Origin: Kiritimatiellia bacterium | Lineage (GTDB): Bacteria > Verrucomicrobiota > Kiritimatiellia > RFP12 > UBA1067 | Length of the DNA stretch: 64,000 nucleotides | Assembly (NCBI GenBank): GCA_045599445.1 | Contig: JAZRWB010000061.1 | Coordinates: forward strand, 12,623-76,622 | Direction: 5' to 3' | In this document: in pieces, positions 2,507 to 27,129 of the stretch | How the letters are laid out: each line of letters begins with the position of its first letter | Position numbering within the stretch: position 1 is the stretch's first letter | Notes under the pieces: model-generated | What the model was told of the DNA's origin: nothing | What the model saw: only the letters and a program-made list of their open reading frames with translations | Databases searched by the model: none | Made by a program: the position numbers and the translations under genes

Positions 2507-3074
2507 ACAGCCACTCCCTCAATTTCGCCGCGAGCTTCTTCGCGCAAAACGCGCGGTTTTCCTCGAACTGTCCGACCATCGACCCCTTCCCGTGGACGTT
2601 GGTAACGCACTTAATCGAGACGAACTTCACGCCGCGCTGATTGCAAACATCGGCAATGGCCGCGCCTTCCATATCGCGCAACTCGCACCCGAGCTTGCGA
2701 AAAAGCGCAAGATCTCCGTCATCGTCGGTGAAGCGGTCGCCGGTTGCGAGCACAAGCCCTTCGTCGCCGACGGGAATGTAGGGACTCGTGCGTCCGTCCT
2801 TTACCCCGACTTCGGTGTGGTTGAGCTTGGCAAGGTCGAAGTCGTATTCAACCGCCGCCTTGACGCGATAGACGTCGCCGACATTCATCTTTTCCCCGAA
2901 ACCGCCGCAAAACCCGACGTTGACGACTTCGGTCGCGCCGTCCTTGATCGCCTCGGTGGCAGTGGCAGCGGCATTGACCTTGCCGATGCCCGAAATATAA
3001 AGCCGATCGTCGCTTTTCAGAAACGGACGCACCGCGTCCGCTTCGTCAGCCATTGCAATGACGAACGCCCGCAT
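2505..3074 (-). CDS. mtnN: MTA/SAH nucleosidase family protein (Pfs/MtnN or futalosine hydrolase MqnB-like)
   Basis: PNP_UDP_1 fold. The N-terminus MRAFVIAMADEADAV matches the MKIGIIGAMEEE region of MTANs. Start chosen at M9 of the listed ORF. Confidence 0.7.
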   Translation of the reverse strand: MRAFVIAMADEADAVRPFLKSDDRLYISGIGKVNAAATATEAIKDGATEVVNVGFCGGFGEKMNVGDVYRVKAAVEYDFDLAKLNHTEVGVKDGRTSPYIPVGDEGLVLATGDRFTDDDGDLALFRKLGCELRDMEGAAIADVCNQRGVKFVSIKCVTNVHGKGSMVGQFEENRAFCAKKLAAKLREWL

Positions 3075-4263
3075 CGAAGTCCTTTTTCGCCTTTTCAAAA
3101 TCCACGGTCGGGAACTCGCCCTTCCGATAGAGCGTCTTGCCGCCGACGATCGTTTCCTCGACGTCGCTCGCGTGCATCGAGTGGACGATTAGATTCGCAA
3201 CGTCCAGCGTCGGGCGGAGGTGGAGCTTTTCCATGTCGACGACGCAAAGATCCGCGAGATACCCCGCCTTGAGTTCGCCGACGTCCGCAAGATTCAGCGC
3301 CTTCGCGCCGTTCTTCGTCGCCATTTCAATAATCTCCCAAACCGAAAGCGCCGTCGGGTCTTTCGCAAGTCCCTTGTGGATCAGCGAGGCGAGGTGCATT
3401 TCCTCGAACATGTCGAGATTGTCGTTCGAGGCGCAACCGTCGGTGCCGAGCGCGACGTTGACGCCAAGTTCTATCGCGCGACGGATTCGTGCAAACCCGC
3501 TTCCGAGCTTCATATTGCTGGACGGATTGTGGACGAGCGAAACTCCCTTCTCACGCATAATCGCGAAATCCTCGTCGGTGCAGTAAACGCAATGCGCCGC
3601 GTAGCCGCCTGCGTCCAAGAGCCCCGTTTTCGCAAGATACGCAATCGGCGTCATACCGTGGCGTGCAATACACTCGGCATGCTCCTTCTCGGTCTCGGAA
3701 ACGTGGACGTTGAGGGGTTTTTTCAGCTCGCGATTCGCCTCGGCGAGCGCCCGGCAATACTTCTCGTCGGTCAGATACTCGGAGTGAACGCACAGGTGGC
3801 GACAGGCGCCGCCGCGCGTAAAGTTGACGGAATCTTCAAGCCGTCCTTCGATGAACGACAACCCCACTCGACAGGTAAAGCCGCGCATTCCTATATCTTG
3901 AAGCGCCTTTTCGCAAGCCCAAGGAAAATCGTACATGTCGGCGACACAAGTCGTTCCGCCCGCAAGCATTTCCAGTATTCCCCAAACCATGCCCGCGCGA
4001 ACGTCCTCTTCGGACATCTTCGCCTCGGCGGGGAATATCTTCTCGTTGAGCCAGCGGTCGAGCGGCAGCCCGCCGCCCAGCCCGCGCACCAGCGTCATCG
4101 GCGTATGCCCGTGGCAGTTAATTAGCCCCGGCATCACCAACCGCACCGGGTCGCAATTGCGTTCGCGGATCTCGGCGATTCGCTCGCCTTCAAGGACGAC
4201 ATCGCCCTTGCCGATTCGACGATCGGGCAGGACGAGATAGGCGTTTTCAAGGATTCTGCTCAT
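3046..4263 (-). CDS. mtaD: Amidohydrolase of the MtaD/chlorohydrolase family (MTA/SAH deaminase or aminofutalosine deaminase)
   Basis: Metal-binding MPGLINCHGHTPMTL and downstream HxH/D motifs of the TRZ/ATZ-MtaD family. 405 aa. Confidence 0.75.
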   Translation of the reverse strand: MSRILENAYLVLPDRRIGKGDVVLEGERIAEIRERNCDPVRLVMPGLINCHGHTPMTLVRGLGGGLPLDRWLNEKIFPAEAKMSEEDVRAGMVWGILEMLAGGTTCVADMYDFPWACEKALQDIGMRGFTCRVGLSFIEGRLEDSVNFTRGGACRHLCVHSEYLTDEKYCRALAEANRELKKPLNVHVSETEKEHAECIARHGMTPIAYLAKTGLLDAGGYAAHCVYCTDEDFAIMREKGVSLVHNPSSNMKLGSGFARIRRAIELGVNVALGTDGCASNDNLDMFEEMHLASLIHKGLAKDPTALSVWEIIEMATKNGAKALNLADVGELKAGYLADLCVVDMEKLHLRPTLDVANLIVHSMHASDVEETIVGGKTLYRKGEFPTVDFEKAKKDFDAGVRHCNG

Positions 4264-13853: not shown

Positions 13854-15086
13854 TTATTGCAAGTAATTAGTCGCTGGGACTATCTTTACAACTTGATTAT
13901 CTACTGAAACCACTTCTTCTTCATGGTCGGTAATCAGAGTAAGGCGCGGGCAATTAAGCTTTCTACCAGCACCTAAAAGCGAAGAAAGTTCACGTTTGCG
14001 TGTTTTTTCGTTTTCTATCGTATACGACACTTGAATAAGTTCGACAATCTTTCCGTGTTCGGTCAAGCAGAAATCAATATCATAGGATTGATCTCGATAA
14101 TAAAAGATTTCCACATCCATCGCCTTTCTCCGGCGCAATAGTTCCAAATAGACGATATTCTCCAATCGCCAGCCAAGTTCCTCGTCAGTTCCCAAAACCC
14201 CGGTAAAGTACGAGATAAGCGCCGGATCGGCAACATACAACTTGTCGTTGCGAATACGTTCGACTATTTTAGTAGAATATTTGCGAATCCGCGACACTAA
14301 ACACGACTCTTCCAAGTAGGATAGATACGTTTGCATAGTATGCGCACTGGATACGCCGGCCTTAACTGCGAGCGCATCATGGGATATCTCGCGAGCATAT
14401 TGCTGCATAATGACATACGCGGCGTCAATGAATCGCTGAGCATTACGCACTTGATGACGACCAAGGATATCTTTAGAGAGGATCGAATTATACAAAGCGG
14501 TGATATATCCGCGAATATCGGGCATCGCAAATGTTTCCGGAAGTCCTCCACGGAAGAAATAGTTTTTCCATGCCTCTTTGACGGGAAGCTTTGACCAAGC
14601 GACATACTCGCCAAAGGAAAAAGGATAGACCTCAATCGGTAAAAATCTACCTGTTAAATGAGTAGCCAATTCGCTCGTAAGTAGCCGCGCATTGGATCCG
14701 GTGATTACCACATGATTGCCTGATCGCAATAAACGATTGACAAAAAGATGCCACCCTTCAACATTTTGAATTTCATCAAATAAAAAGTGTTTAACTGGCC
14801 CATAGACCGCAAGCACCGCCTGTAAGACATCATCTAACTGATCAGCGGTTAGATTCAATAGTGCCTCATCGTCAAAGTTTACATACCCAAACGTCACCCC
14901 CGAGTCCGACAATGCTTTACGGCAAACCACCGACTTACCAGCACGTCGCATCCCAAGAACTGCCTGAGCAAAGGGACTGTTTACCTCGACGCTCCGCATA
15001 GAGGAGCGGAAAAGCACATCTTGGACCAATAAATGTCTTAACTCCTCGCGTTGCTCAAGGACTATCTTCTCAAAGTTTCTTGACAT
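13854..15086 (-). CDS. AAA+ ATPase (AAA_14) with C-terminal DUF4143 / PD-(D/E)xK-like domain
   Basis: Walker A GMRRAGKS, Walker B FLFDEIQ. Start set at MSRNFEK because GGAGG lies 5 nt upstream, rather than the ORF-track ATG at 15107. Confidence 0.8.
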   Translation of the reverse strand: MSRNFEKIVLEQREELRHLLVQDVLFRSSMRSVEVNSPFAQAVLGMRRAGKSVVCRKALSDSGVTFGYVNFDDEALLNLTADQLDDVLQAVLAVYGPVKHFLFDEIQNVEGWHLFVNRLLRSGNHVVITGSNARLLTSELATHLTGRFLPIEVYPFSFGEYVAWSKLPVKEAWKNYFFRGGLPETFAMPDIRGYITALYNSILSKDILGRHQVRNAQRFIDAAYVIMQQYAREISHDALAVKAGVSSAHTMQTYLSYLEESCLVSRIRKYSTKIVERIRNDKLYVADPALISYFTGVLGTDEELGWRLENIVYLELLRRRKAMDVEIFYYRDQSYDIDFCLTEHGKIVELIQVSYTIENEKTRKRELSSLLGAGRKLNCPRLTLITDHEEEVVSVDNQVVKIVPATNYLQ

Positions 15087-15107
15087 TTTACCTCCAAAGA
15101 TATGCAA

Positions 15108-15221: not shown

Positions 15222-16394
15222 CTAAATGGCGGGAGGAAACCACATAACCGAACGGAAATTATCCGCTCGAACCGATGCATCTCCAAACGATTTAATCGGC
15301 TCGCCATCGTAAACAAGTAAAGGATCTACCGCCGATAAATCACTTTGCGAATAAACCAAAAGATTTCGAACAAGATCTTTTGAGAAAGTCCTTGCCGACT
15401 TTACCTCAACCGGACGCACTTGCGCACTCTGCGAAACAATCAAATCGACCTCGAACCCCTTCTCGGTTCGATAAAATGCCATCCTCGGCTCTCTTCCGCG
15501 ATTTGTGAAGTTTTTACGTGCGTCCGCCACAACCAAGTTTTCAAAGAGATTTCCACGAAGCGGATCCCTCGCTAATTGATTCGGTGTCTCAATGCCCAGC
15601 AAGTAAGCCGCAAGTCCTACGTCCGTAAAATAAACCTTCGGGGATTTGACTACCCGTTTGGAGACATTGGAAAAATACGGTGGTAGCCGGAATACAAGAA
15701 AAGACGCCTCAAGAACGGAAAACCAACTCGAAAGCGTCGTTGCCGAAACTCCAACTTCACTTGAAAGCGTAGAAAAATTCACAATCTGCCCCACGCGCCC
15801 CGCCAATAGAGTCACGAACCGCTCAAACAACAACAGATCTTTCACATTCACCAGTCGCCGCACATCGCGTTCTACATACGTTCTGAAATAATTACGATAA
15901 TAATTCGTCGGGTCTTTCCTCGTTCGATAGAGTTCGGGCATAAACCCACGGAGAATGAGTTCGTCCGTCGTCAGCTCCTTTGATTCGGACGCGATTTCGT
16001 CAATTGAAAGCGGCAAAAGTTCAAGAATACTCGTCCGTCCCGCCAACGACTCGTCGATCGTCTCCGCAAGACTCGCTTGTTGACTTCCGGTCAGAACAAA
16101 CTGCCCGCATCTTTCACGATGCTCATCGACCATCACCTGAACCGCTGAAGCAATTTCCGGGACATGCTGAATCTCATCAATAATCAGCGGCTTGGTATGC
16201 ATCAAAAATAACGATTTGTAATCCGCAATCGCTAAATCCCTCGTCTCCTTATCCTCCAACGAAATGTAGTCAAAGTCTGGACAACATGCCTTCGCAAGAG
16301 TTGTCTTACCAGATTGTCGCGGACCAAAAATAGTTACAACGGGATATTCGGCAAGCGAAGATTTTAAAATAGAAGTTAATTTACGGTCAATCAT
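15222..16394 (-). CDS. AAA+ ATPase (AAA_14) with DUF4143 domain, second paralog
   Basis: Walker A GPRQSGKT, Walker B LIIDEIQ, C-terminal FEVDLIV...VEVK motif. Confidence 0.8.
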   Translation of the reverse strand: MIDRKLTSILKSSLAEYPVVTIFGPRQSGKTTLAKACCPDFDYISLEDKETRDLAIADYKSLFLMHTKPLIIDEIQHVPEIASAVQVMVDEHRERCGQFVLTGSQQASLAETIDESLAGRTSILELLPLSIDEIASESKELTTDELILRGFMPELYRTRKDPTNYYRNYFRTYVERDVRRLVNVKDLLLFERFVTLLAGRVGQIVNFSTLSSEVGVSATTLSSWFSVLEASFLVFRLPPYFSNVSKRVVKSPKVYFTDVGLAAYLLGIETPNQLARDPLRGNLFENLVVADARKNFTNRGREPRMAFYRTEKGFEVDLIVSQSAQVRPVEVKSARTFSKDLVRNLLVYSQSDLSAVDPLLVYDGEPIKSFGDASVRADNFRSVMWFPPAI

Positions 16395-16550: not shown

Positions 16551-19500
16551 TTACTTATATTCAACCGGCGTGACGATCGTCTGATAGAAGCCCTTGCCTT
16601 CCGGCTTCGTAAGCGTGAACTTGACCTCGTCCTTGCCCGCAAGCTTATTCTTATCGCCTTCCTCATTGAAGCCAAGGTTGGTAAGCTCGCCACCCTGCTT
16701 GAGCGAGTAGTAGAAGCCCTTGAGCGGATCTGCAATCGTGAGCTCGGTCGTATCAGCGGAGAGCGCAACCGAGAGCACATCGGCCTCAGCGGCCTTGACC
16801 GCCTCCTCAACCGCCTCCTCGCCATCCTCGTTCAACACAAACGCAACCTTCTCGCCAACGACCTGAGCCGTGAAGTAGCTCTGGTAAGTCGAGAGCGCTT
16901 CACCGGTAAGCTCAACCGGCGCCTTGAGGAGAGTTGCCTTTTGAGCTTCGACTTCACCAGCATACTCTTGCGGATCCTTGCCGGACGGGATGTCAATATC
17001 CTCTCCAGGAACGACCGGCGAGGACTTCGCCTTAACCGTGAGGTTGTCGATCGAGCAGATTTCCTTCGTAGTCTCGCCATCGGTGATGACGAGCTTGAGC
17101 GTGAAGGTCGCATCGTTCTTAAGATCGATGTTCTTCACTCCGCACTTGAAGGACTGGATCGCCTCGAAGACAGTCTTGACCGTGATGTCGTCTTCCAATC
17201 CAACCGTCGCCAAGACGCTGACAGGATCCCCAGCCGTGCAGGTGTAGTCCTTGTCAACCCAGCCATACGAACCGTAGTTGCCACCAAGCTGGACTTCACC
17301 CTCGCCGATTGTGACATCCGAAATGAGGTAGAACTTGGCAATCCAGCTGTCGTAGCCAACACCGATATTGCCAGCCGTGAACTCAGCCGCCGCCTCGTAG
17401 CCCTCGGCAGTGGTCGGAGCAACCGTAGCCGTCGGAAGGACCTTGGCCGCTGGAATTGTGAACTCGATATCCTTGGTAAGAACGGTATCATCATCCTTAG
17501 CAATCGTGAGCGTTACCGTGAAGGTAGTCTCCTCAGTAAGCGCAATATTCTTAAGTCCACAATTGAAGGTCTTAACATTTTCGGCAATGTAGTTCCACGG
17601 CATATCGATTACCGCGTATGGCTCGTTTGCCGTAAGATCGCTCGTAAGCGGCATATCAATCCACTCGCCATCGTAGTTGTTGTTAATGCCCGCTGGATCT
17701 TCAAGATCGGTCGCATTGAACTGACCCGCGAGAATAATCGCATCTTGCGCAACATTCTTATCGGACGTAATCGTCAAACTCGCCGTATAGTCAGCATACT
17801 TCTGAGCACCCGCCTCCGTCGCCTTGAAGGTAGCCGCCGCGGCAAGCTCTTCCGGCTTGTCAGTCATCGCCTCAACCGTCGCCTCTGGCTTGATCCACTC
17901 AGCCGTGTAGGTGTAGAGTTTGACGCCTTCCGCATAAGAGACTGCCGTTTCAACGATCTTCGCGCCCTCGACCGTCACAATATGACCATCTCCGACATCA
18001 GGATTGTCGATGAGCTTGATGAACGTCTGAACTTGGCCACGCTCCGGAACGAGCGTAATCACCGCCGAATCATCGTAGAACATCAAGACTGATGCTTCGA
18101 GCATGGCAATATTGTCCGGATAAGTCTCGTAATCCATACCCTGACCATCGGCACCAATCACGAGCGGACCGGCAATCATACAAGCGCCGCCGACATTGAT
18201 GATCGTGTGATAACCGTGAGAACCGCGTTCGATGACGCCAGCAAGCACCAGTCCGCTCGCGCCATTGCCGGGAACGACGTTGATTGACTTCTTCGCCGCA
18301 GCACCGTAGAAGTTGTAGAGCAGTCCATCATCAGGCAGCGTGATCGTCGTGATCGTCGCGCCCGGAATCCCCTGCACCTTCATGATTGTGAGCACCGTCT
18401 CGGCCGGGAAGGTATACGCGTACGCAACCACCATATCAACCGCGAACTTGATCGTACCGTGCGTATCGATAAGCGCGAGAGCCGTCGTTTCGTCGTAGAT
18501 AACGATCATGCCGTTGTTCACGATGTTCGCCGGGTTAATCAGAACGGTCTTCTCGTTGAGGTCGAGCGTGACATCTTCGGGAATCGTAAGCGTAAGCGAA
18601 CTGAGATCCGCGTTCTGAAGAACGATTACCGTATCGCCATCCGTTGCATCAGCAAGTGCCGCAGGAATGTCGAGGTAATCGACATCTTCAATCCTCGCGC
18701 CCGCGTCGACCGTGACATCATCCTCAGTAATATCATTGGCAATCTCAGGATCTTCCGTGACAGAATAGTAATCAAATTCGAGTCCGTCAGTGCCGTCCTT
18801 GAAGAGCTTGCCGGGCTGAACCGTGTAAGTAACGGTCATGTCCGCACCATACGGAATCGCAGCATAGCCGCCGATAACGGGGATTGGCTCCTCAACCCCT
18901 TCAACCGTAACCACGACATCCGTACCAGCAATCTCCGGAATCGCGACTTCCACCTGCGCATACGAGACCGTGAGCTTGCCGCCCGCATAGACGAGCATGT
19001 AGTCGCCTTCAACTATCTCGCCCTCGGCGTCGATAAGCGTGATTTCCGGAATCGTCGCCGGCTCAGGCATCGTGATGAAGCTGCCGACCTCGCCGATAAC
19101 CGCCAAGGTCTCGCCAAAGGTAACGCCGCCCTCGGCAATCCACTGCTGACCCGCGAAGGTAATCGTCGCGTCATCGGCGACCGCAATCTTCGCGTTGTTA
19201 ACTGTGCCCTCACCACTACCGAGCGTAATGCCCATGCCGCCAATCATACGGACCTGACCAATATGTTCCGAGGCGTCAACAACCGCGATCTTCTGCGTAA
19301 CATTCGGCTTGTTGCCGATGAAGTTGCCATTTCCGCTGACCTTGCTGAAGATAACCGGCGAGTAGCTCGATCCGTCGGTAAGTTCAAGACCGGCAAGATT
19401 GTTATTCGCGAGAATAACTTCTGGCTCAAACTCAACGCCATCCTTCAGATAACCAACGACGCCAGTAAGCTTAACCGTCGTATTCTCGTTGCCATACTTG

Positions 19501-22500
19501 TTGAGGTCCGCGCCAGTCACCGTGACATTGGTGAACTCGACCGCGCCAGCCCAATCCTCGTCAACCGTGAAGAGCGGAGACGCTTCCGTGAGCGTAGCGC
19601 CGGTAACCGCGATCGTGCCCGCGCCCTGAATCGGTGTCGTAAGCGGAATCGCAAGCGCCGTCGTAGGAATCGTCATCGTCACGTCCGAAGGAACGACGAT
19701 CTCATCCTCCGCAAAGAGACGCGGCATATCCGCCTCGCCGTCCTCGGTCAGCGCAAAGAGCGTATCGTCGGAGAGCGTAGTCGAGCTCTTGAGATAGAGC
19801 GTCGTCGCCTCACGATCCGCGATAGTCGTCACGCCATACGCCTTGTGCTCGGCGCTATAGCCGAACGAAATCGAACGTCCGGCCGGAGCGGACGGAAGCG
19901 CGGTGCAAGTAACCTTGTCGCCAAGATCATCAGTCGTACCCGTCAAAGCAACGAAGCCAATCTTGGCAAAAGTGCTGACAGGAGCGGCACTATAATCGAA
20001 TGCGACCGAACCTTCGCCCGAAACCACGAACGGACCGTTCGCAATCGAGATCGAGCCGTACTCGATCGTAATCGGGGACGCAACCGTTGTAAGACCGATG
20101 TTAATCGCTTCTGCCGCACCCGCCTTGAAGGTCATCGCCGCGCCCGAGAAAGTCATTGCCTCGTAGTCGGTTTCTTCGGTGAGATCAACCGTGATTGATG
20201 CCGCACCAGCCGCGCTGATATTCAACGTCGAACCAGCCGCAGGAAGATCAACGGTCTCCGACGTCTTCGTATTCGTCCAAGAATCGGCCAACGTCCAAGT
20301 ATCATCGCCCTCCGCAAATTCACGCTCGAAAGTACCGTTCGGCGAGTTGTAGGGGAACTCGTCGGCAAGCTGCTTAAGCGCATTCGGGCCCAAAGCACCT
20401 TCGAAAATACGAACCGCCTGAATGGCCGTATCATTCGTCGCATCCTTCGAGCTCTCAATCATCGTGTTCTGCTTACCACCGTGAATCGAGCCAACCTGAA
20501 TACGATTACCGAAGGAAACGTTCGAAACAGGGGTTACGTTCCAAAGGTTACCATCAAGATAAACCGTAATCGAATTCGCCGTCTTCACGAACGCATAGGT
20601 ATGCGAGGTCGTGAGCGCATTGGCAACCTGCATCGTCGCAAGCGACTGGTACGCGCTATTGCCAATCGTACGGGCAATCAGAACCTCAGTATCAGTCGAG
20701 CCCTTGAGAATCGCAATGCTGCCACCAGTCGAAGTACCAAAGGCAATCAAGGCCGCATTTACGGTATTAGGAACGACACCGGCAACGACACACGTCCATT
20801 CGGTCGGATAATTGATTGTAAAGTCCGAATACGGAGTCGCCTTGGTGTTCAGCGCCTTACCGTAAACAAAGTCTTCACTCTCAAGGATCCGTTCAGATGC
20901 ATGCTCCTGACCATCTTTGTATCCAGTATCCCAGGTTAGCGTGCTCTTGATCTGACCAACGCTCGTAAGCGAATCGGCCTTGAACGTCCAGTCGTAGAGG
21001 CACGCTTCACCATCGGTCTTGATCGTAAATGACGCAGTTACGGTAGTACCCGAAACCGTGGTGGTAAGCGGGGTAACACCATCCATATCGTAAACAACGA
21101 GCGATGTGCCAACAGGGACATTGACAATCTTAACTGTTCCGTCATCAGCCACCGTCGCGACAACCTTGATCTTACCCTCGCCCGACGTCGTTATATTGCC
21201 GATCGTGCTAAAATCGCGCACATACCCGACATCATATTCGCCGCCGGCGATTTCCACGCTACCCGTGCCCGAGGTGGACACGCTCTTCACATACGACGCA
21301 TTATCCAAAACAACCTTGCCCGCGTTAGCGACGACGGTCACGTTGCCTTGGGATGCACCGATCTTGAGCGTTCCTGCGCCCGTCTTGGTCAAGGTCCTTG
21401 TCTGGTTGGACTTGACGGCGCCAGTGAGCTTCAAGGTCATACCATCGCCGACATTAAACGTCGTGTCGGCGGAATACTTGAACGGCGCGGAGACCGTCGC
21501 TTCCGTCGAACTGCCGTTAACGGCCGCGTTGATCGGAATATACATATCAAGCGCGCCGTTTCCATCACCAGCACCCGAAATCTCGGCGCCGTCATAGATG
21601 TTAAGTGCGCCACTGCTACCCTTGTACGTCCAACGATACCCGCCCATATTGAGCGCACCATAGACATTGAGCGTAAAGGAAGCGTTGTCCGCATAACTGA
21701 ACGCATCGCCCGAAGCGGCGATCGCCGTCGCTCCCGCGTCGATCGTGAGCGTACCACCGCCGCTAATGCCCTGGCTCGCGAACTTCAAGGTCGCCTGGCC
21801 GTTCACGACTTCAAGCGTACCGCCGGGAACCGCGTTGTTCGCGTCAAGGTTCACATAGCCCTCGGTCTTCAAGGTGCCGTTGACCGTAAGTGCACCAGTG
21901 CAAGTAAAGGTATTATCCTCGGTCTCGCCGCCCTGAATAGTCCAAACTTCATCCACTGGAATTGTGACATTGGCAGTGAGTTCAGTATTGGCGGTAACCA
22001 CTTGTTCAAGCGTGAAATCACCCTTCGTGAAGGTAATATCACCAATTGGTGCCGTAGCATCATAGGTAAGAACCGTGTTGCCTTCCAAGGTAATCTCGGT
22101 CGCAGCCTCCGCGTAGAACTTGCCAGCATCCCAAGTAATAGTGCTCCAATTCTGGTTGCCACTAATAGTTGCCGTATTCTTGAGCGCGAGATTCCACTTA
22201 GCCGTGAGATAATCTTCAACCGTCTTGAGTTGATCCGCAGTAAGAACCGCGTTAAAGATAAGAACTTCGCTGAGCTTACGACCGCCCGAACGATTGTCCG
22301 AGCCACCACGATCGCCCGAGAAGCAGTCCGTCGAGCAATTCGCCGAAGTCGTCATCGACACCACGCGGAAGCCCTCGGGAAGAACATAGCTCTTGCCGTC
22401 TCCCTCGTTCGCGCCATTATCACGAACCGAGAACGCAACTGCGTTGCCATTAAAGCACTTCGTCGAACCCGCAGCCGTCTGGTCGCGGTGGAAGTTATAG

Positions 22501-25500
22501 ACCTGACGATCGCCCATCAAAAACGCACGAGGATCGTTCTTAATATCAATGACTTCAATCACCGTCTTGGCATTGTTATCGACTGGCTCAAAGCCAAGGT
22601 CAATGTGGCTATTGCACTCGCCGAAATCGAGGTATTCACGAAGCTCACCATTAACGAAGGTCGGCGTGTCGGTAATATTGGCAGTCGTATATGCCGCCGC
22701 AGCCGTCGTGCCGCAAAGATCCGCCCACGCGGTAACCTTGTTGTTATCGCCCGTCGTCACTCCGCGCGAAGCATCAAAGCGACGAATAAGCGATGTATCC
22801 TCGAGAATCGCTGCAACATCAGCAGTATAGTAGTCGGACTTGGTGATTGCGAACACAATCGCCTTCATCTCCCATTCTTCAAGCTCAACCAACTGGAACT
22901 CACCTTCCATGCCCTTCGGCAACTTACCGGTAAGCGTGCACTTGAAGTCGTTGATCGTCGCGTCGCTCTCTCCAATCGTGAAAGCGCTTGCGGCCACGAC
23001 CAAGATCTCCTCACCCACGACATACTCGTCTTCGCAGACGAAGGTAATCGGCAAGCCACTCTCCGGAAGCGTAATCGTTCCCGTCGCCGTCAAGCTTGCA
23101 CCGTTGTGGGTAATGTTGATCGATCCGCCTTCACCAAAGGCCAAATCACCCTCAATATTCGTCGGTTCCGCAACATTGTAAGGCGTGGTAATCTCCGACT
23201 TCTTGAGGACGATGTAGCCATCGCCATCAATTTCCAGCTTATCAGCGCTAATCGTTGCACCCGTACTATCCTTGAATGTCAAGCCCTCGGGAATCGCGCT
23301 CGCCTTGGCGATCTGTCCGAACGGGAAGCCAGTAGGAAGCTTGATGGAGCCAGTGGAAGCCGCATCAATCGTCCAGCTAAGCGGCATCTCCGTCGTGCCA
23401 AGATCGATATCGCCGTTAATCACAACCGTATTCGTAGCCGTGCGATTAATCTGGCCGCCCGTAAGCGTAATCGTCTGCGTATAGGCCGCCGGGAGATTGA
23501 GCGTGCCCGCGCCGGTCTTGGTAATCGCAAAGTCGCCCGAAATCGCCGAAATGGTCGCCGTGCCCGACGCAACTTCAATCTCAGTCGCCTTGGTAAGAGT
23601 CAAACTGTTGACCGTGCCGCCAAGCGCGAGCGAGCCATCATCAACTGTAATCCCCAGGGTAACATTGTCGGTGATTTCAAGCTTACCTGCGCCACGCTTG
23701 CCAAGCACACGACTGGTGTTGATGCCCTTCAACTCGCCGACAATCCTCAAAGTCGAACCCGCGCCGACGTAAAAGCCCGCGTTAGGATTGTTTTCCTGTC
23801 CGATATACATGTTGGCATTGTTTTCAATCGTAATCGTCGCAACGCCATTTTCACTCTCGGGAACATAAATCTGCTCCTTGCCGCTCACATTGCCGCCGTT
23901 TATGCGGAGATGATCGCCAGAATTGTAGACATGGGTCGACGAACCCGGATCAAGATAAAGCCGTGCGCTGAAGAAGAAAGTATTGCTGGAAGAATAATCG
24001 CGCAAATTGAGAGTTGCGCCAGAATTGACGCGAACTACGCCATTCGGATTAGCCGCCGCATTCCATCCGCAGAAATCCCTACCATAAAGGTTAAGTATCG
24101 TACCTCCCGTAACGAGGATGGTCGGATTCTCCGCCGTGCCATTATTCGCGAAAGACGTTCCCGGACCACTATTGCTGCGCTTGAACGCATGAGTACCGCC
24201 ATCAAATACGATGTGCGTATTGAATGTGTCGTTCCCAACAAAGTCCAGCGTTGCGCCGTTAGAACCAGAACCGATGAAGGTGAACACCTTGTCATCGCCC
24301 GCGACCTTAATCATGTCCAAAAGCGCGCTATCTGCCGTAAGCCCGCTCGTTGCATCAAAGCGATAATCAAACTTGCCCGCGAAGTCGACAGTCGCCGTCA
24401 CCTTGCCGAGGAAGGAGTTGATATTCGTAGCCGCACCCGCGATTCCAACGACCTGCGCAGTAGTATCGCCAATGAGCTTGATATTCTTAGCAACTACCTC
24501 CGTGTCAATCGTCAAGGTCGGCGAACCGATAAACGTAAGCTCAACTGGCGTATTCGCCGTCGGAGCGGTGCCGCCCTCCCAAAGCGCCGACCAAGTGGTA
24601 TTCTCCGAAATCGTCGCCGTTACCGCTGGCTGTGGCGGAGCCACCTTCACAATCACAATCGCCGCAATGCAACCACGCTCCGAATTACTCGCCTTTGGCG
24701 AATTTGTAATCTCGAACTTTTGCGTGGTAAGTCCAGAAAGACGCATTACATTCTTACCGAGAATCGGCGTCAACTGCTGCGAAGCGCCCCATGCCGCAGT
24801 TGAATTCGCAACCGCTTCACCATTCTCATTTGCGCTATAATTTACGCCGTTAATGGTCTTGTAGGAGAATTTCGCATTTCCCGTATCGGTCGCGCAGATA
24901 ATATACACATCATAGCGATCAAACGGAACAGTAGTTTTAAAGGAAATGTTACTATCGTCGAGGTAACCTTTTAGGTAAGGAGTGGTAGCATTGTTCCACT
25001 GATAAGAACCGCCATTATACGAAACTGGGATGGTATCAGCAAGAACCGTCGAACCATCCGAACCGAACAACTTGGCATCAAGCGAGCCAGAAGTACCAAC
25101 ATTATTCCAGGTGTTACCGTAAATCGTCAAGTCAGGGATTCCCGCTTCATCGCTATCACCAAGCTTGCCGGAATCCTGCTTGAAGTTAATCGCCATACCG
25201 CTACCAACAGGGAGCCACGCATAATCAAGCGAGGTGACGCCCTTGAAATCAAACTTGGCCAAATCCGCAGGTGCCGCCTCGCCAAGAATCTTAAGCGCAC
25301 CATCATAAACAATCTTCGCCTGACCAAAAGCAAAAGTCTCATCGAACTCAAGCGTCTTCGCCGCCGTGAGATTCACGACAACCTTGTCGTCCGAAGTGCA
25401 ATCCGCAAACTCAGTCGCGTTATTGATGTCACTAACCTTAACCGCCTCTGCCTCAATCGTCGTCTCTGGCAACACAGGAGGAGGAAGCTCCTTAACCGCG

Positions 25501-26246
25501 AGGAAGTTGATGCCTGCGCGCTCGCCAGTCAGGACAAGGTCTATCGTTCCGCCGCTCTTCGGAACGATACCCTTCATACGAATAAGCGCCAAGCCATCCG
25601 CACCAGCACAAATCGACTCGCCAAAGCCAAACGAAGTAAACGAATCCGCAACTACCGTCGAGGATCCCGAGCGCCCCCAACTTGAAGCGACCGTAACCAC
25701 ATAATCAAGAGAATCGACTTCTGCGCATGCATTGGAAGGCACCTTGAATCCACAAGACGACTTACCAATGTTGCCGTTGTCATGCCCGCAACCCGCATAA
25801 ATCACATAAGAGGATTCCGCGTTCAATCCGGAAATCGTAATAGTTCCATCCGTATTCGCACCATTGGCGACGCCAGACATGTAAACGTTGTAAGGGACTT
25901 CAATTCCCAAATTCGTCTGCATATCGCTGGTTGCAAACGTAGGAAGATCGGTGCCGACCAACTTGGAAAACGACCGCTTGAAGTTACCGCCAATACTCGC
26001 TCCGCCAACCGAAACGTCATTATCAGTCTCGCTGTTCAAATTACCGCCACCTTCTTGTTGGCAACTATGCCACCCTGCAACTTCATATCCAGTGTTGCAA
26101 TAGTTAAAGAGCGCCATCTTCAGTTCAGCTGCCTGCGCAGAGCTGATGAACAGGAACGAGAAAAGCGATACGAGCGCGTACCGCACGATGTTTAGGGTTT
26201 TTTTCATGTTGGTTTTGTTTTGTTTTTGGTTGTTGTTAGTAGTCAT
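16551..26246 (-). CDS. Giant secreted surface protein (~3230 aa) with PATR repeats and internal domain repeats
   Basis: Signal peptide MKKTLNIVRYALVSLFSFLFISSAQA, preceded in frame by MTTNNNQKQNKTNM. Two PATR-like repeats (ITKTGAGTLNLPAAYTQTITLTGG and LTKTGAGTLKIGASQGNV). Repeated ~40-aa domain (FNCGLKNIALTEETTFTVTLTI and FKCGVKNIDLKNDATFTLKLVI). True start is 26246 or 26207. The ORF-track start at 26327 is an extension into the inserted cassette. Confidence 0.75.
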   Translation of the reverse strand: MTTNNNQKQNKTNMKKTLNIVRYALVSLFSFLFISSAQAAELKMALFNYCNTGYEVAGWHSCQQEGGGNLNSETDNDVSVGGASIGGNFKRSFSKLVGTDLPTFATSDMQTNLGIEVPYNVYMSGVANGANTDGTITISGLNAESSYVIYAGCGHDNGNIGKSSCGFKVPSNACAEVDSLDYVVTVASSWGRSGSSTVVADSFTSFGFGESICAGADGLALIRMKGIVPKSGGTIDLVLTGERAGINFLAVKELPPPVLPETTIEAEAVKVSDINNATEFADCTSDDKVVVNLTAAKTLEFDETFAFGQAKIVYDGALKILGEAAPADLAKFDFKGVTSLDYAWLPVGSGMAINFKQDSGKLGDSDEAGIPDLTIYGNTWNNVGTSGSLDAKLFGSDGSTVLADTIPVSYNGGSYQWNNATTPYLKGYLDDSNISFKTTVPFDRYDVYIICATDTGNAKFSYKTINGVNYSANENGEAVANSTAAWGASQQLTPILGKNVMRLSGLTTQKFEITNSPKASNSERGCIAAIVIVKVAPPQPAVTATISENTTWSALWEGGTAPTANTPVELTFIGSPTLTIDTEVVAKNIKLIGDTTAQVVGIAGAATNINSFLGKVTATVDFAGKFDYRFDATSGLTADSALLDMIKVAGDDKVFTFIGSGSNGATLDFVGNDTFNTHIVFDGGTHAFKRSNSGPGTSFANNGTAENPTILVTGGTILNLYGRDFCGWNAAANPNGVVRVNSGATLNLRDYSSSNTFFFSARLYLDPGSSTHVYNSGDHLRINGGNVSGKEQIYVPESENGVATITIENNANMYIGQENNPNAGFYVGAGSTLRIVGELKGINTSRVLGKRGAGKLEITDNVTLGITVDDGSLALGGTVNSLTLTKATEIEVASGTATISAISGDFAITKTGAGTLNLPAAYTQTITLTGGQINRTATNTVVINGDIDLGTTEMPLSWTIDAASTGSIKLPTGFPFGQIAKASAIPEGLTFKDSTGATISADKLEIDGDGYIVLKKSEITTPYNVAEPTNIEGDLAFGEGGSINITHNGASLTATGTITLPESGLPITFVCEDEYVVGEEILVVAASAFTIGESDATINDFKCTLTGKLPKGMEGEFQLVELEEWEMKAIVFAITKSDYYTADVAAILEDTSLIRRFDASRGVTTGDNNKVTAWADLCGTTAAAAYTTANITDTPTFVNGELREYLDFGECNSHIDLGFEPVDNNAKTVIEVIDIKNDPRAFLMGDRQVYNFHRDQTAAGSTKCFNGNAVAFSVRDNGANEGDGKSYVLPEGFRVVSMTTSANCSTDCFSGDRGGSDNRSGGRKLSEVLIFNAVLTADQLKTVEDYLTAKWNLALKNTATISGNQNWSTITWDAGKFYAEAATEITLEGNTVLTYDATAPIGDITFTKGDFTLEQVVTANTELTANVTIPVDEVWTIQGGETEDNTFTCTGALTVNGTLKTEGYVNLDANNAVPGGTLEVVNGQATLKFASQGISGGGTLTIDAGATAIAASGDAFSYADNASFTLNVYGALNMGGYRWTYKGSSGALNIYDGAEISGAGDGNGALDMYIPINAAVNGSSTEATVSAPFKYSADTTFNVGDGMTLKLTGAVKSNQTRTLTKTGAGTLKIGASQGNVTVVANAGKVVLDNASYVKSVSTSGTGSVEIAGGEYDVGYVRDFSTIGNITTSGEGKIKVVATVADDGTVKIVNVPVGTSLVVYDMDGVTPLTTTVSGTTVTASFTIKTDGEACLYDWTFKADSLTSVGQIKSTLTWDTGYKDGQEHASERILESEDFVYGKALNTKATPYSDFTINYPTEWTCVVAGVVPNTVNAALIAFGTSTGGSIAILKGSTDTEVLIARTIGNSAYQSLATMQVANALTTSHTYAFVKTANSITVYLDGNLWNVTPVSNVSFGNRIQVGSIHGGKQNTMIESSKDATNDTAIQAVRIFEGALGPNALKQLADEFPYNSPNGTFEREFAEGDDTWTLADSWTNTKTSETVDLPAAGSTLNISAAGAASITVDLTEETDYEAMTFSGAAMTFKAGAAEAINIGLTTVASPITIEYGSISIANGPFVVSGEGSVAFDYSAAPVSTFAKIGFVALTGTTDDLGDKVTCTALPSAPAGRSISFGYSAEHKAYGVTTIADREATTLYLKSSTTLSDDTLFALTEDGEADMPRLFAEDEIVVPSDVTMTIPTTALAIPLTTPIQGAGTIAVTGATLTEASPLFTVDEDWAGAVEFTNVTVTGADLNKYGNENTTVKLTGVVGYLKDGVEFEPEVILANNNLAGLELTDGSSYSPVIFSKVSGNGNFIGNKPNVTQKIAVVDASEHIGQVRMIGGMGITLGSGEGTVNNAKIAVADDATITFAGQQWIAEGGVTFGETLAVIGEVGSFITMPEPATIPEITLIDAEGEIVEGDYMLVYAGGKLTVSYAQVEVAIPEIAGTDVVVTVEGVEEPIPVIGGYAAIPYGADMTVTYTVQPGKLFKDGTDGLEFDYYSVTEDPEIANDITEDDVTVDAGARIEDVDYLDIPAALADATDGDTVIVLQNADLSSLTLTIPEDVTLDLNEKTVLINPANIVNNGMIVIYDETTALALIDTHGTIKFAVDMVVAYAYTFPAETVLTIMKVQGIPGATITTITLPDDGLLYNFYGAAAKKSINVVPGNGASGLVLAGVIERGSHGYHTIINVGGACMIAGPLVIGADGQGMDYETYPDNIAMLEASVLMFYDDSAVITLVPERGQVQTFIKLIDNPDVGDGHIVTVEGAKIVETAVSYAEGVKLYTYTAEWIKPEATVEAMTDKPEELAAAATFKATEAGAQKYADYTASLTITSDKNVAQDAIILAGQFNATDLEDPAGINNNYDGEWIDMPLTSDLTANEPYAVIDMPWNYIAENVKTFNCGLKNIALTEETTFTVTLTIAKDDDTVLTKDIEFTIPAAKVLPTATVAPTTAEGYEAAAEFTAGNIGVGYDSWIAKFYLISDVTIGEGEVQLGGNYGSYGWVDKDYTCTAGDPVSVLATVGLEDDITVKTVFEAIQSFKCGVKNIDLKNDATFTLKLVITDGETTKEICSIDNLTVKAKSSPVVPGEDIDIPSGKDPQEYAGEVEAQKATLLKAPVELTGEALSTYQSYFTAQVVGEKVAFVLNEDGEEAVEEAVKAAEADVLSVALSADTTELTIADPLKGFYYSLKQGGELTNLGFNEEGDKNKLAGKDEVKFTLTKPEGKGFYQTIVTPVEYK
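26205..26246. repeat. Direct repeat A, copy of the giant-gene leader
   Basis: catgttggttttgttttgtttttggttgttgttagtagtcat. Matches 26782-26820 with 1 mismatch and a 3-bp indel. On the minus strand it encodes MTTNNNQKQNKTNM. Confidence 0.85.
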
Positions 26247-26262
26247 TGTGTTCAATGTAAGT

Positions 26263-26418
26263 TCAAAATTGATGGGGTAAGGCTTTTTGTTGACGCTTTG
26301 CAAGACCATGCTCGTAGCGACGCGCACGCTTCGCCAACACAGAATCTTTGGCTTCGGCTTCCGTAGCCATTTTTTGCATCTTCGCCCAGTTAGCGATGCC
26401 TTCTTCTATAGTCGTCAT
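26263..26418 (-). CDS. 51-aa ORF downstream of the toxin gene (possible truncated or atypical antitoxin)
   Basis: MTTIEEGIANWAKMQKMATEAEAKDSVLAKRARRYEHGLAKRQQKALPHQF. Sits where a HigA-type antitoxin would be, but has no recognisable HTH. Its stop lies just before repeat A. Confidence 0.3.
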   Translation of the reverse strand: MTTIEEGIANWAKMQKMATEAEAKDSVLAKRARRYEHGLAKRQQKALPHQF

Positions 26419-26420
26419 TG

Positions 26421-26753
26421 TCACAAGCCAAGGCCTTTCATGATGGCGCGAGCCTTCTTAATCTCCTGCTTCGGTGTTTTCTGCGTCTTCTTGATGAAGC
26501 CATTGAGAATGTAAATCACATTACCAACAATCGTATAGCAATAAAACGCCCTCCCTTGCTTACCGTCTGCTCGGACGCGTAATTCAAAGAGATTGTCACC
26601 AATTTTCTTAGCATCTGGGAGACCCAGGCGTCCGCATTTCGCCAACATTTGGATCGCACGATTGAAATCGACAAACATAGGCAGAGGCAACGACATGAAG
26701 AATTCATTCGCTTGAGCCGTAATAACAATTTGCTTTTTCGTTTCTTTACACAT
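26421..26753 (-). CDS. RelE/ParE-superfamily toxin of the phage Gp49-like (DUF891/HigB-like) family
   Basis: LFELRVRADGKQGRAFYCYTIVGNVIYILNGFIKKTQKTPKQEIKKARAIMK matches the Gp49-like pattern (LxE[LI]R..., RxxY..., LLxGFxKK[ST]QKTP). Strong RBS AAAGGAGG 6 nt upstream of ATG. Confidence 0.7.
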   Translation of the reverse strand: MCKETKKQIVITAQANEFFMSLPLPMFVDFNRAIQMLAKCGRLGLPDAKKIGDNLFELRVRADGKQGRAFYCYTIVGNVIYILNGFIKKTQKTPKQEIKKARAIMKGLGL

Positions 26754-26775
26754 CTTTACCTCCTTTCTCCGATTT

Positions 26776-26820
26776 TCAACTCATGTTGGTTTTCTTTTGT
26801 TTTTGGTTGTTGTTAGTCAT
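26776..26820 (-). CDS. 14-aa upstream leader ORF (MTNNNQKQKKTNMS)
   Basis: Lies within direct repeat B. Duplicate of the N-terminal leader of the giant protein. Terminates 12 nt before the toxin RBS. Confidence 0.4.
   Translation of the reverse strand: MTNNNQKQKKTNMS
26782..26820. repeat. Direct repeat B
   Basis: catgttggttttcttttgtttttggttgttgttagtcat. Partner of 26205-26246. The two repeats bracket a 535-bp toxin cassette. Confidence 0.85.
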
Positions 26821-26862
26821 TTCAAATTCACCGACTGCGGACACACCTTCCGCAATTTTGGG

Positions 26863-26896
26863 CTTATAATACCAAATTTCCATCCACCGCGTCAAG
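26863..26896 (-). promoter_or_regulatory. Sigma70-type promoter for the leader, toxin cassette and giant-gene transcription unit
   Basis: Minus strand reads cTTGACGcggtggatggaaatttgGTATTATaag: -35 TTGACG, 18-nt spacer, TG-extended -10 TATTAT. Leader is ~45 nt. Confidence 0.55.
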
Positions 26897-27129
26897 CAGG
26901 AAAAAGCAAACAGTACCATTCTAAACAATATCTTAGATTGGTGAGTACTATTCTAAACCATTATTTACTCTTCGCCTCCGCCATCATCGCTCCCACCACG
27001 CCCAAAACTACCATCCATCTTGCGAAAACGGAGACTCCAGAGTCTTGCAAACGCCTCACCTAGCTGTCGGCCATGTCCCTATAGGCCCGAGCGTTGGGGG
27101 CTTTGAATATCTCTATGGGGTAAGAAGCG

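Follow-up and report, generated by a model that had tools for sequence, protein, structure and literature searches.

We analyzed a 64-kb stretch of DNA from a Kiritimatiellia bacterium (contig JAZRWB010000061.1), in which an inserted promoterless toxin-partner pair separates a 9.7-kb gene, coding for a giant secreted protein, from its promoter. The whole stretch is referred to as the window and its sequence as W, and related loci are labelled L001-L033. An earlier reading made from the letters alone (the sequence-only reading) had named two repeats, a toxin gene, a partner open reading frame (ORF), a promoter and a short upstream ORF (uORF), and each of these elements is present where that reading had placed it, on the minus strand. 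Read in the direction of the genes, the features of the locus are as follows:

26866..26895, minus strand: promoter-like site, sigma-70-like with 10/12 matches (TTGACG, 18-nt spacer, extended -10 TGGTATTAT)
26832..26857, minus strand: hairpin AATTGCGGAAGGTGTGTCCGCAGTCG in the 5' untranslated region (UTR), with an 8-bp stem and a 7-nt loop in the RNA centroid fold
26781..26820, minus strand: left (upstream) leader copy, CA-rich, ATGACTAACAACAACCAAAAACAAAAGAAAACCAACATGA, from the repeat search
26776..26820, minus strand: uORF MTNNNQKQKKTNMS followed by a stop, 14 codons from ATG to TGA, formed by the left leader copy
26421..26753, minus strand: Gp49/HigB-family toxin gene, 110 aa, with a GGAGG Shine-Dalgarno sequence (Pfam PF05973)
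26263..26418, minus strand: partner ORF, 51 aa, putative antitoxin, conserved beside toxin homologues
26247..26268, minus strand: cassette-associated right flank TTTTGAACTTACATTGAACACA, called 'type C', from the comparison of flanks across loci
26204..26246, minus strand: right (downstream) leader copy, ATGACTACTAAC..CCAACATGA, sharing the reading frame of the signal peptide
26130..26207, minus strand: signal-peptide coding region, MKKTLNIVRYALVSLFSFLFISSAQA, nucleotides common to paralogous giant genes
16551..26246, minus strand: ORF of the giant secreted-protein gene, 3231 aa from ATG 26246

The toxin and its partner lie on a discrete 535-bp segment that is bounded by two direct repeats, the two copies of the leader. 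The repeat search recovered these as a 37-nt direct repeat with 97% identity (26204-26240 and 26781-26817), which lengthens to 43 nt (26204-26246) and 40 nt (26781-26820) when a 3-nt ACT indel is allowed for. A 26-nt leader pattern, with up to three mismatches, occurs twice in the 64-kb window and not once in 100 shuffles. The left copy is preceded by the native flank GGTGAATTTGAA, and the left cassette junction falls directly after its ..CCAACATGA. Unlike the left copy, the right copy is preceded by the cassette-associated ACATTGAACACA, and with it the giant gene retains its native context for translation start. From this right copy the signal peptide is read in frame into the 3231-aa ORF that ends at 16551. 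The length of 3258 aa previously given for the giant protein was the product of a mechanical GTG start at 26327, and ATG 26246 (3231 aa) or ATG 26207 is the more likely start.

The toxin matches Pfam PF05973 (Gp49) with E=1.1e-20 over the entire profile, and its closest solved structure is HigB 6af3 of the RelE/ParE superfamily (E=2.4e-4). The GGAGG, a strong Shine-Dalgarno sequence, lies 8 nt 5' of its ATG. Comparison with L001, a Logan contig from an independent assembly that was found by exact toxin look-up, gave 12 synonymous and 0 non-synonymous differences in the toxin gene (proportions of synonymous and non-synonymous differences, pS and pN, of 0.17 and 0), and comparison with L006 gave a pS of 0.70 and a pN of 0.035. 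For the partner gene the corresponding values are a pS of 0.095 and a pN of 0.058 against L001, and a pS of 0.53 and a pN of 0.14 against L006 (pN/pS about 0.27). These substitution patterns indicate that the toxin is under strong purifying selection and that both genes show selection. The partner starts 2 nt after the toxin stop codon, and an alternative GTG start that would give a 53-aa protein overlaps this stop by 4 nt; an adjacent, tightly coupled partner of this kind is one of the features by which type II toxin-antitoxin (TA) systems are recognized. A homologous partner is located 3' of the toxin in L001, L006, L008, L009, L015, L018 and L019, and the partner is conserved beside toxin homologues in 11 of 11 aligned sequences. 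Its family shares the motif G.ANW..Q.....E..P.L.+R..R....L..RQ, to which longer members add a C-terminal P.(S/T)KAY.DY. Some relatives (L008-L014) also have a third small gene, possibly a separate regulator, that is absent from the window.

The partner had been described as lacking a recognizable helix-turn-helix (HTH) fold, and this is borne out by the absence of any Pfam, NCBIfam or PDB match and by an AlphaFold2 model that contains only two helices (4-24 and 26-46; pLDDT 82.5). A HigA-type Xre/HTH domain was not found by Pfam, NCBIfam or PDB searches or in this model. The partner family is rare, with ~3 real representatives among 1.84 billion cluster representatives. A protein word-index search with the 51-aa ORF returned nothing, and a 3347-aa protein (P0101) that appeared as a partner homologue was discarded as a low-complexity repeat artefact. 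We consider the 51-aa protein to be a putative antitoxin that would neutralize the toxin. The sequence-only reading had allowed that the toxin may be unopposed or degenerate, which does not agree with the substitution pattern relative to L001 or with the conservation of the partner in free-standing relatives. Because the toxin is under purifying selection and the partner is conserved, the pair is not degenerate, and these data indicate a HigB-like toxin with a non-HTH partner that is neither unopposed nor degenerate.

Among the promoter-like sites, the one at 26866..26895, with its TG, is the only good one 5' of the cassette and the giant gene. An own promoter or operator of the toxin pair was not found in the window, where the whole distance from the left junction to the toxin ATG is 27 nt and has no promoter-like site, and on the gene strand no further promoter-like site was found from the promoter as far as the giant gene. 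This arrangement is consistent with the proposal of the sequence-only reading that the cassette and the giant gene would be transcribed together from a single promoter. The only terminator-like hairpin between the promoter and the giant gene is within the signal-peptide coding region; it consists of GCGGTACGCGCTCGTATCGC and a T-rich run (26165-26184, minus strand), lies within the most conserved nucleotides of this region and is also present at 4451-4470 of L004.

The window and four of the related loci (L001-L004) constitute the window's repeat family of five loci. L002-L004 are located in Kiritimatiellia metagenome-assembled genomes (MAGs) and were found with a degenerate signal-peptide pattern. 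All five loci keep the -35, the extended -10 and the hairpin, although their upstream flanks are of three unrelated kinds; among L001-L004 the spacer and the upstream flanks vary, and the -35 and -10 do not. Hairpin changes in L001-L004 are wobble-compatible, and the DNA fold of the hairpin has 6 bp. The promoter, hairpin, CA-rich leader and signal-peptide codons thereby form a module with ~92-96% nucleotide identity between loci, behind which the mature proteins differ. Two 18-nt direct repeats, 32 nt apart, lie just 5' of the -35 in the window (26912-26929, ATTGTTTAGAATGGTACT, and 26944-26961, ATGGTTTAGAATAGTACT, minus strand); they are absent from L001-L004 and could be a candidate regulator binding site.

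What occupies this site differs from locus to locus. L001 shares the promoter with the window and encodes a toxin protein identical to that of W as well as a 51-aa partner; its left leader is degenerate, and its right leader and signal peptide are well conserved. It is ~92% identical to W over roughly 750 nt, with many substitutions, and it shares the window's cassette and junctions, yet an entirely different mature giant protein follows its signal peptide. L003 is an empty site that has the promoter, the hairpin, GGTGAATTTGAA, a single leader copy and the signal peptide of a different giant protein. In L002 a HicB-like/HicA pair is located between the hairpin and a ..ACATTGAACACA flank plus leader. 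L004 contains four cassettes in tandem (DUF2442; a 68-aa ORF with PIN/VapC; a PIN-like ORF with a 47-aa ORF; and a second copy of this last cassette from which the toxin is deleted), followed by the full signal peptide and the giant gene. Its separators are a 29-nt leader fragment and two copies of the leader plus partial signal peptide, both of which are cut at ..GCGCTCGTA; these partial copies break within the 3' arm of the terminator-like hairpin. Overall, at least five different cassettes occupy this site in other genomes. The empty site and the alternative cassettes support the earlier claim that the toxin cassette is inserted in the 5' leader of the giant gene, and they also identify the site as a recurrent hot spot with cassette arrays, which that claim did not include. 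The loci are not syntenic, indicating that paralogous genes carry the module as a portable 5' end and that the empty site of L003 is a paralogous one. The signal peptide is where homology to the other loci stops, at 26135 for L002-L004 and at ~26128-26136 for L001, and the mature giant protein of the window is unrelated or weakly related to those of L001-L004, with patchy similarity to that of L004.

The limits of the cassette are defined by free-standing relatives. Close toxin homologues in L005-L008 (93% and 91% amino-acid identity) are free-standing, and L005 and L006 possess a TGATATAAT promoter of their own, together with the same small partner. Homology of L005-L008 to W extends from 26780/26781 (26770 for L008, a contig end) to 26288/26289 (26369 for L007, a contig end), and the left junction shares an ATG microhomology with these relatives. 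When L005 270-300 is aligned with W 26760-26781, the cassette begins ~7-8 nt after the free-standing -10, at about the expected transcription start, which may reflect chance, selection for promoterless copies or an RNA-derived origin. More distant toxin homologues adjoin integrases or a phage-repressor-like gene, or are in an island next to mfd.

The same type of arrangement is seen with repeats of unrelated sequence. L018, an NCBI MAG contig, has one promoter and a 129-nt repeat that is present before a PIN cassette and again before a Gp49 plus partner cassette, and its array ends in a gene for a protein of >2600 aa. Tandem 24-nt CCCTATTGGGTAGGGT palindromic repeats and GC-alternating repeats are located 5' of the L018 array promoter (1834-1921, 2031-2214). 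In L015 a Gp49 plus partner cassette lies between 38-nt repeats. A sequence-unrelated second family (L029-L033) contains PIN+76aa, Gp49+73aa, 109aa+YafQ-like and Abi_2 cassettes that are set apart from one another by repeats of the 5' segment encoding the signal peptide of a glycine-rich giant protein, and L029 contains two full promoter plus signal-peptide modules. All cassettes are co-oriented with the giant gene, each array is headed by one strong promoter-like site, and the distance from the junction to the first start codon is only 9-43 nt in W, L002, L004, L018, L029 and L030. Two further observations concern the composition of such units. Toxin-deleted cassettes that have lost the PIN gene and kept the downstream small ORF (L004 4227-4367 and L032 1041-1361) resemble orphan antitoxins or immunity genes. 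In L027 a three-gene unit (68 aa, Gp49 of 122 aa, 84 aa) is tandemly duplicated, with a third partial unit, and the unit heads are a 300-nt repeat with 97% identity (2074-2373 and 3030-3329).

The two ends of the cassettes are not alike. The ACATTGAACAYA portion of 'type C' (ATATGAACATA in one case) forms the 3' end of every cassette in the window's repeat family, namely in W, L001, L002 and four copies in L004, and native site flanks are present in its place in the left copy of W and in L003 (GGTGAATTTGAA) and in L001 (ACGGATTTGATG). Left junctions vary from cassette to cassette in position and sequence and are constant for a given cassette, and the right flanks are shared sequence. Such an asymmetry would be expected if one end were homologous and the other illegitimate. 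On balance we lean toward the reading that the window contains one occupied copy of a cassette landing pad that is filled by recombination anchored in the shared 5' module. According to this model, a giant secreted-protein gene family in uncultured Kiritimatiellia would share a portable 5' module, and promoterless TA cassettes would lodge between the promoter and the giant gene, always in gene orientation, by homologous recombination in the conserved 5' module at one end and an illegitimate joint at microhomology at the other (homology-facilitated illegitimate recombination). Orphan immunity arrays have been proposed to arise in this way, from a homologous anchor combined with an illegitimate end (Kirchberger et al. 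2017, PMC5361080). A cassette that is bordered by common homology arms could then be copied to paralogues and to other strains by ordinary recombination, and unequal exchange between leader copies could stack, duplicate or delete cassettes. Since the cassettes are always in gene orientation, the promoter of the giant gene would transcribe them, so that they would in effect borrow it; the truncated leader/signal-peptide ORF would end 1-3 codons past the junction, and a Shine-Dalgarno sequence would then restart translation. Because each cassette carries or precedes a leader/signal-peptide copy, the giant gene would keep its native translation start, with the right leader copy restoring the start context.

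Several points weigh against this reading. The right flanks of the L002 cassette and of cassette 1 of L004 start identically at TAATTAGRAAACTTTC, and those of the YafQ and PIN+76aa cassettes start identically at AGCCACGC; the left junction of L002 and that of L004 cassette 1 are also identical and fall after GCAGTCG. Illegitimate joins that arose independently would not be expected to coincide to the nucleotide, so this recurrence favours either a site-specific step or a single ancestral junction that was later shuffled. A homology-driven model also leaves the origin of the 'type C' flank unaccounted for. Furthermore, of the empty site that the sequence-only reading had proposed to look for in related genomes, L003 provides the single leader copy without a cassette, but as a paralogous locus and not as a syntenic orthologue of the window locus. 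Scans of metagenome and viral contigs for the signal-peptide or hairpin pattern returned nothing and just five loci were retrieved, so the window's repeat family rests on W and L001-L004. Finally, co-transcription of the cassette and the giant gene from a single promoter is a prediction from the sequence.

The recurring breakpoints lead to the first alternative, in which a recombinase encoded elsewhere would insert circular promoterless cassettes at a site in the 5' UTR, leader or signal peptide, with insertions accreting as in a dedicated integron-like or cis-mobilizable system. We regard this as possible though doubtful. It would account for compact, promoterless, co-oriented cassettes under one promoter, for the conserved short flank that ends every cassette of the window's family, for identical breakpoints with different cassettes, and for one architecture being common to three repeat families that are unrelated; tyrosine integrases are also frequent neighbours of relatives of the toxin-partner pair (L019, L020). 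However, the junction repeats are unstructured (DNA fold z = -0.7 to -1.5, with only a 5-bp hairpin and no attC-like fold), the repeat search found no inverted repeats at the junctions or terminal ends, and the left junctions are scattered over the hairpin flank, leader and signal peptide with no common core. In addition, no integrase or transposase is present among the nine flanking ORFs, from ~19 kb downstream to 7 kb upstream, which belong to housekeeping families or have no match, and tblastn with two tyrosine integrases gave no match in the window, L001-L004 or L018, the rest of the genome lying outside these searches. Two candidate core sites were rejected. A CATTG-AACA-CAATG palindrome in 'type C' is too short for a Xer/dif-like site and is not conserved in L004, and TTGAA, considered as a motif common to both cassette ends, does not occur at the left junctions of L002 and L004.

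A second alternative is that the arrangement is regulatory, with the leader or uORF (for example by Asn/Gln/Lys-rich attenuation) or the toxin (by cleavage of the long mRNA) controlling the giant protein and the duplication being maintained for this purpose. All five full leader copies do keep the reading frame of the signal peptide, their indels being 3 nt, and the terminator-like hairpin is located in conserved signal-peptide codons. The number of terminator-like sites is nevertheless at chance level, and the existence of an empty site and of unrelated cassettes indicates that the giant gene does not need this toxin. Moreover, the upstream uORF of L001 has diverged to MMTNNNTKGKND followed by a stop, and the downstream copy is conserved; this decay of the left copy argues against a role for the uORF peptide, and the uORF, which had been put forward as a possible regulator, is probably a decaying relic. 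A regulatory design therefore strikes us as improbable. As to the leader itself, both copies (26204-26246 and 26781-26820) are a run of A-A-N/C-A-A triplets, and the leader could be an unstructured translation enhancer or an Hfq/S1-type binding region, instead of or besides coding for MTTNNNQKQNKTN. Rfam contained no family for the 5' UTR or the leader, and CrcZ was discarded as an identity for the leader, its weak match (E=0.08, 16 bits versus a gathering score of 95) being due to the CA-rich triplets.

An ordinary transposon-like insertion, with the leader copies as a one-off scar of target-site duplication and no wider significance, is very unlikely. Two direct repeats do bound a discrete segment, and the sequence-only reading had taken them for a target duplication, but the upstream flanks of the two copies differ (GGTGAATTTGAA versus ACATTGAACACA), the duplicated length in relatives ranges from ~29 to 129 nt where a transposon or insertion sequence would give a short fixed duplication, neither terminal inverted repeats nor a transposase were found in the searches described above, and other genomes have different cassettes at the same site. 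Least credible of all is an assembly artefact that fused paralogous 5' ends, for although short-read MAGs and metagenomic contigs with repeated segments invite such errors, exact repeats in the window are no longer than 23 nt, the independent Logan assembly has the same cassette and junctions at ~92% identity with many substitutions, and junctions of the second family recur in five contigs from different samples.

The surroundings of the locus provide additional observations. The giant protein has no significant Pfam domain, a protein word-index search with its N-terminus returned nothing, and it has TKTGAGTL-type motifs. Directly 3' of the giant gene are genes for two DUF4143/AAA ATPases (15222-16394 and 13854-15107, minus strand) that match the PADLOC candidate defence family PDC-S01 (E=2.6e-97 and 2.4e-87), and L002 and L003 also have homologues of these, at 1-2 kb from their giant-gene modules. 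Further TA-like pairs lie just 5' of the modules in L003 (5113-6563), L004 (248-1751) and L002 (1332-1990); by eye these were assigned as HTH plus HipA-like and nucleotidyltransferase-like plus HEPN-like pairs. The module neighbourhoods are TA-rich in general.

The closest comparison is with sedentary chromosomal integrons (IntI/attI/attC/Pc), which often carry TA and defence cassettes. As in integrons, the cassettes are compact, promoterless and co-oriented, they would be expressed from one promoter, TA and abortive-infection cargo dominates, and a repeated element is present at each boundary. Unlike integrons, there is no attC-like fold, no IntI or attI was found near the locus, the left junctions are variable, the boundary repeats are copies of the leader/signal-peptide start of a host gene, and at the end of the array stands a 9.7-kb host gene with the same promoter. 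The orphan toxin/immunity arrays of Rhs, CdiA and type VI secretion systems (T6SS) offer a second parallel (PMC5361080), as there too every module has next to it a piece of a conserved part of a giant or polymorphic gene, the same anchor and illegitimate end have been proposed, and toxin-deleted derivatives keep the protective gene (here cassette 4 of L004 and L032 1041-1361). Those arrays, however, are at the 3' end of the gene and consist of secreted toxin tips with immunity genes, whereas here a fragment of the main gene's 5' end (UTR, leader or signal peptide) is found at every boundary, C-terminal toxin tips with immunity genes are not found, and the cargo is intracellular type II TA and abortive-infection genes (HigB, HicA, PIN, YafQ, Abi_2) that are unrelated to the giant protein.

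In regards to the pair itself, it resembles higBA/Gp49 (PF05973) type II TA systems in its toxin family, in its toxin-first order and in its tightly coupled downstream partner, and relatives of that group are also found near integrases and phage-repressor-like genes; it differs by its 51-aa two-helix non-HTH partner and by having no promoter of its own in the window. PaaA2-type antitoxins (paaR2-paaA2-parE2) are likewise short helical partners of RelE/ParE-superfamily toxins that have no DNA-binding fold, although no sequence similarity to the 51-aa partner was detected and the window lacks the third small gene that some relatives carry. The integrase-less cis-mobilizable elements at gene-end att sites and the pdif modules of Acinetobacter are also small modules without a recombinase, often TA systems, that accumulate in tandem between repeated sites. 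Here, in contrast, there is no recognizable Xer/dif-like or att core, and the repeats are long, variable coding 5' ends.

A description of such arrays in Kiritimatiellia was not found in the literature, and a cassette-stacking site at the 5' ends of giant genes appears to be undescribed so far. It is conceivable, although we judge it unlikely, that Kiritimatiellia and at least one other uncultured lineage possess an undescribed capture platform in which the 5' end of a giant gene is the recombination site of a dedicated, integron-like mechanism without attC or IntI, by which promoterless TA and abortive-infection cassettes would be inserted, stacked and exchanged under the promoter of the giant gene. 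If the landing pad is confirmed, it would represent a second route, besides integrons, to expressed arrays of small defence or addiction cassettes, with the conserved start of giant surface-protein genes serving both as promoter donor and as recombination substrate. The locus defines a rare antitoxin candidate without a DNA-binding domain and provides a testable case of promoterless selfish modules spreading among paralogues. It also links TA and abortive-infection genes physically, and by its layout probably transcriptionally, to surface proteins of very large size in a phylum that has been studied little.

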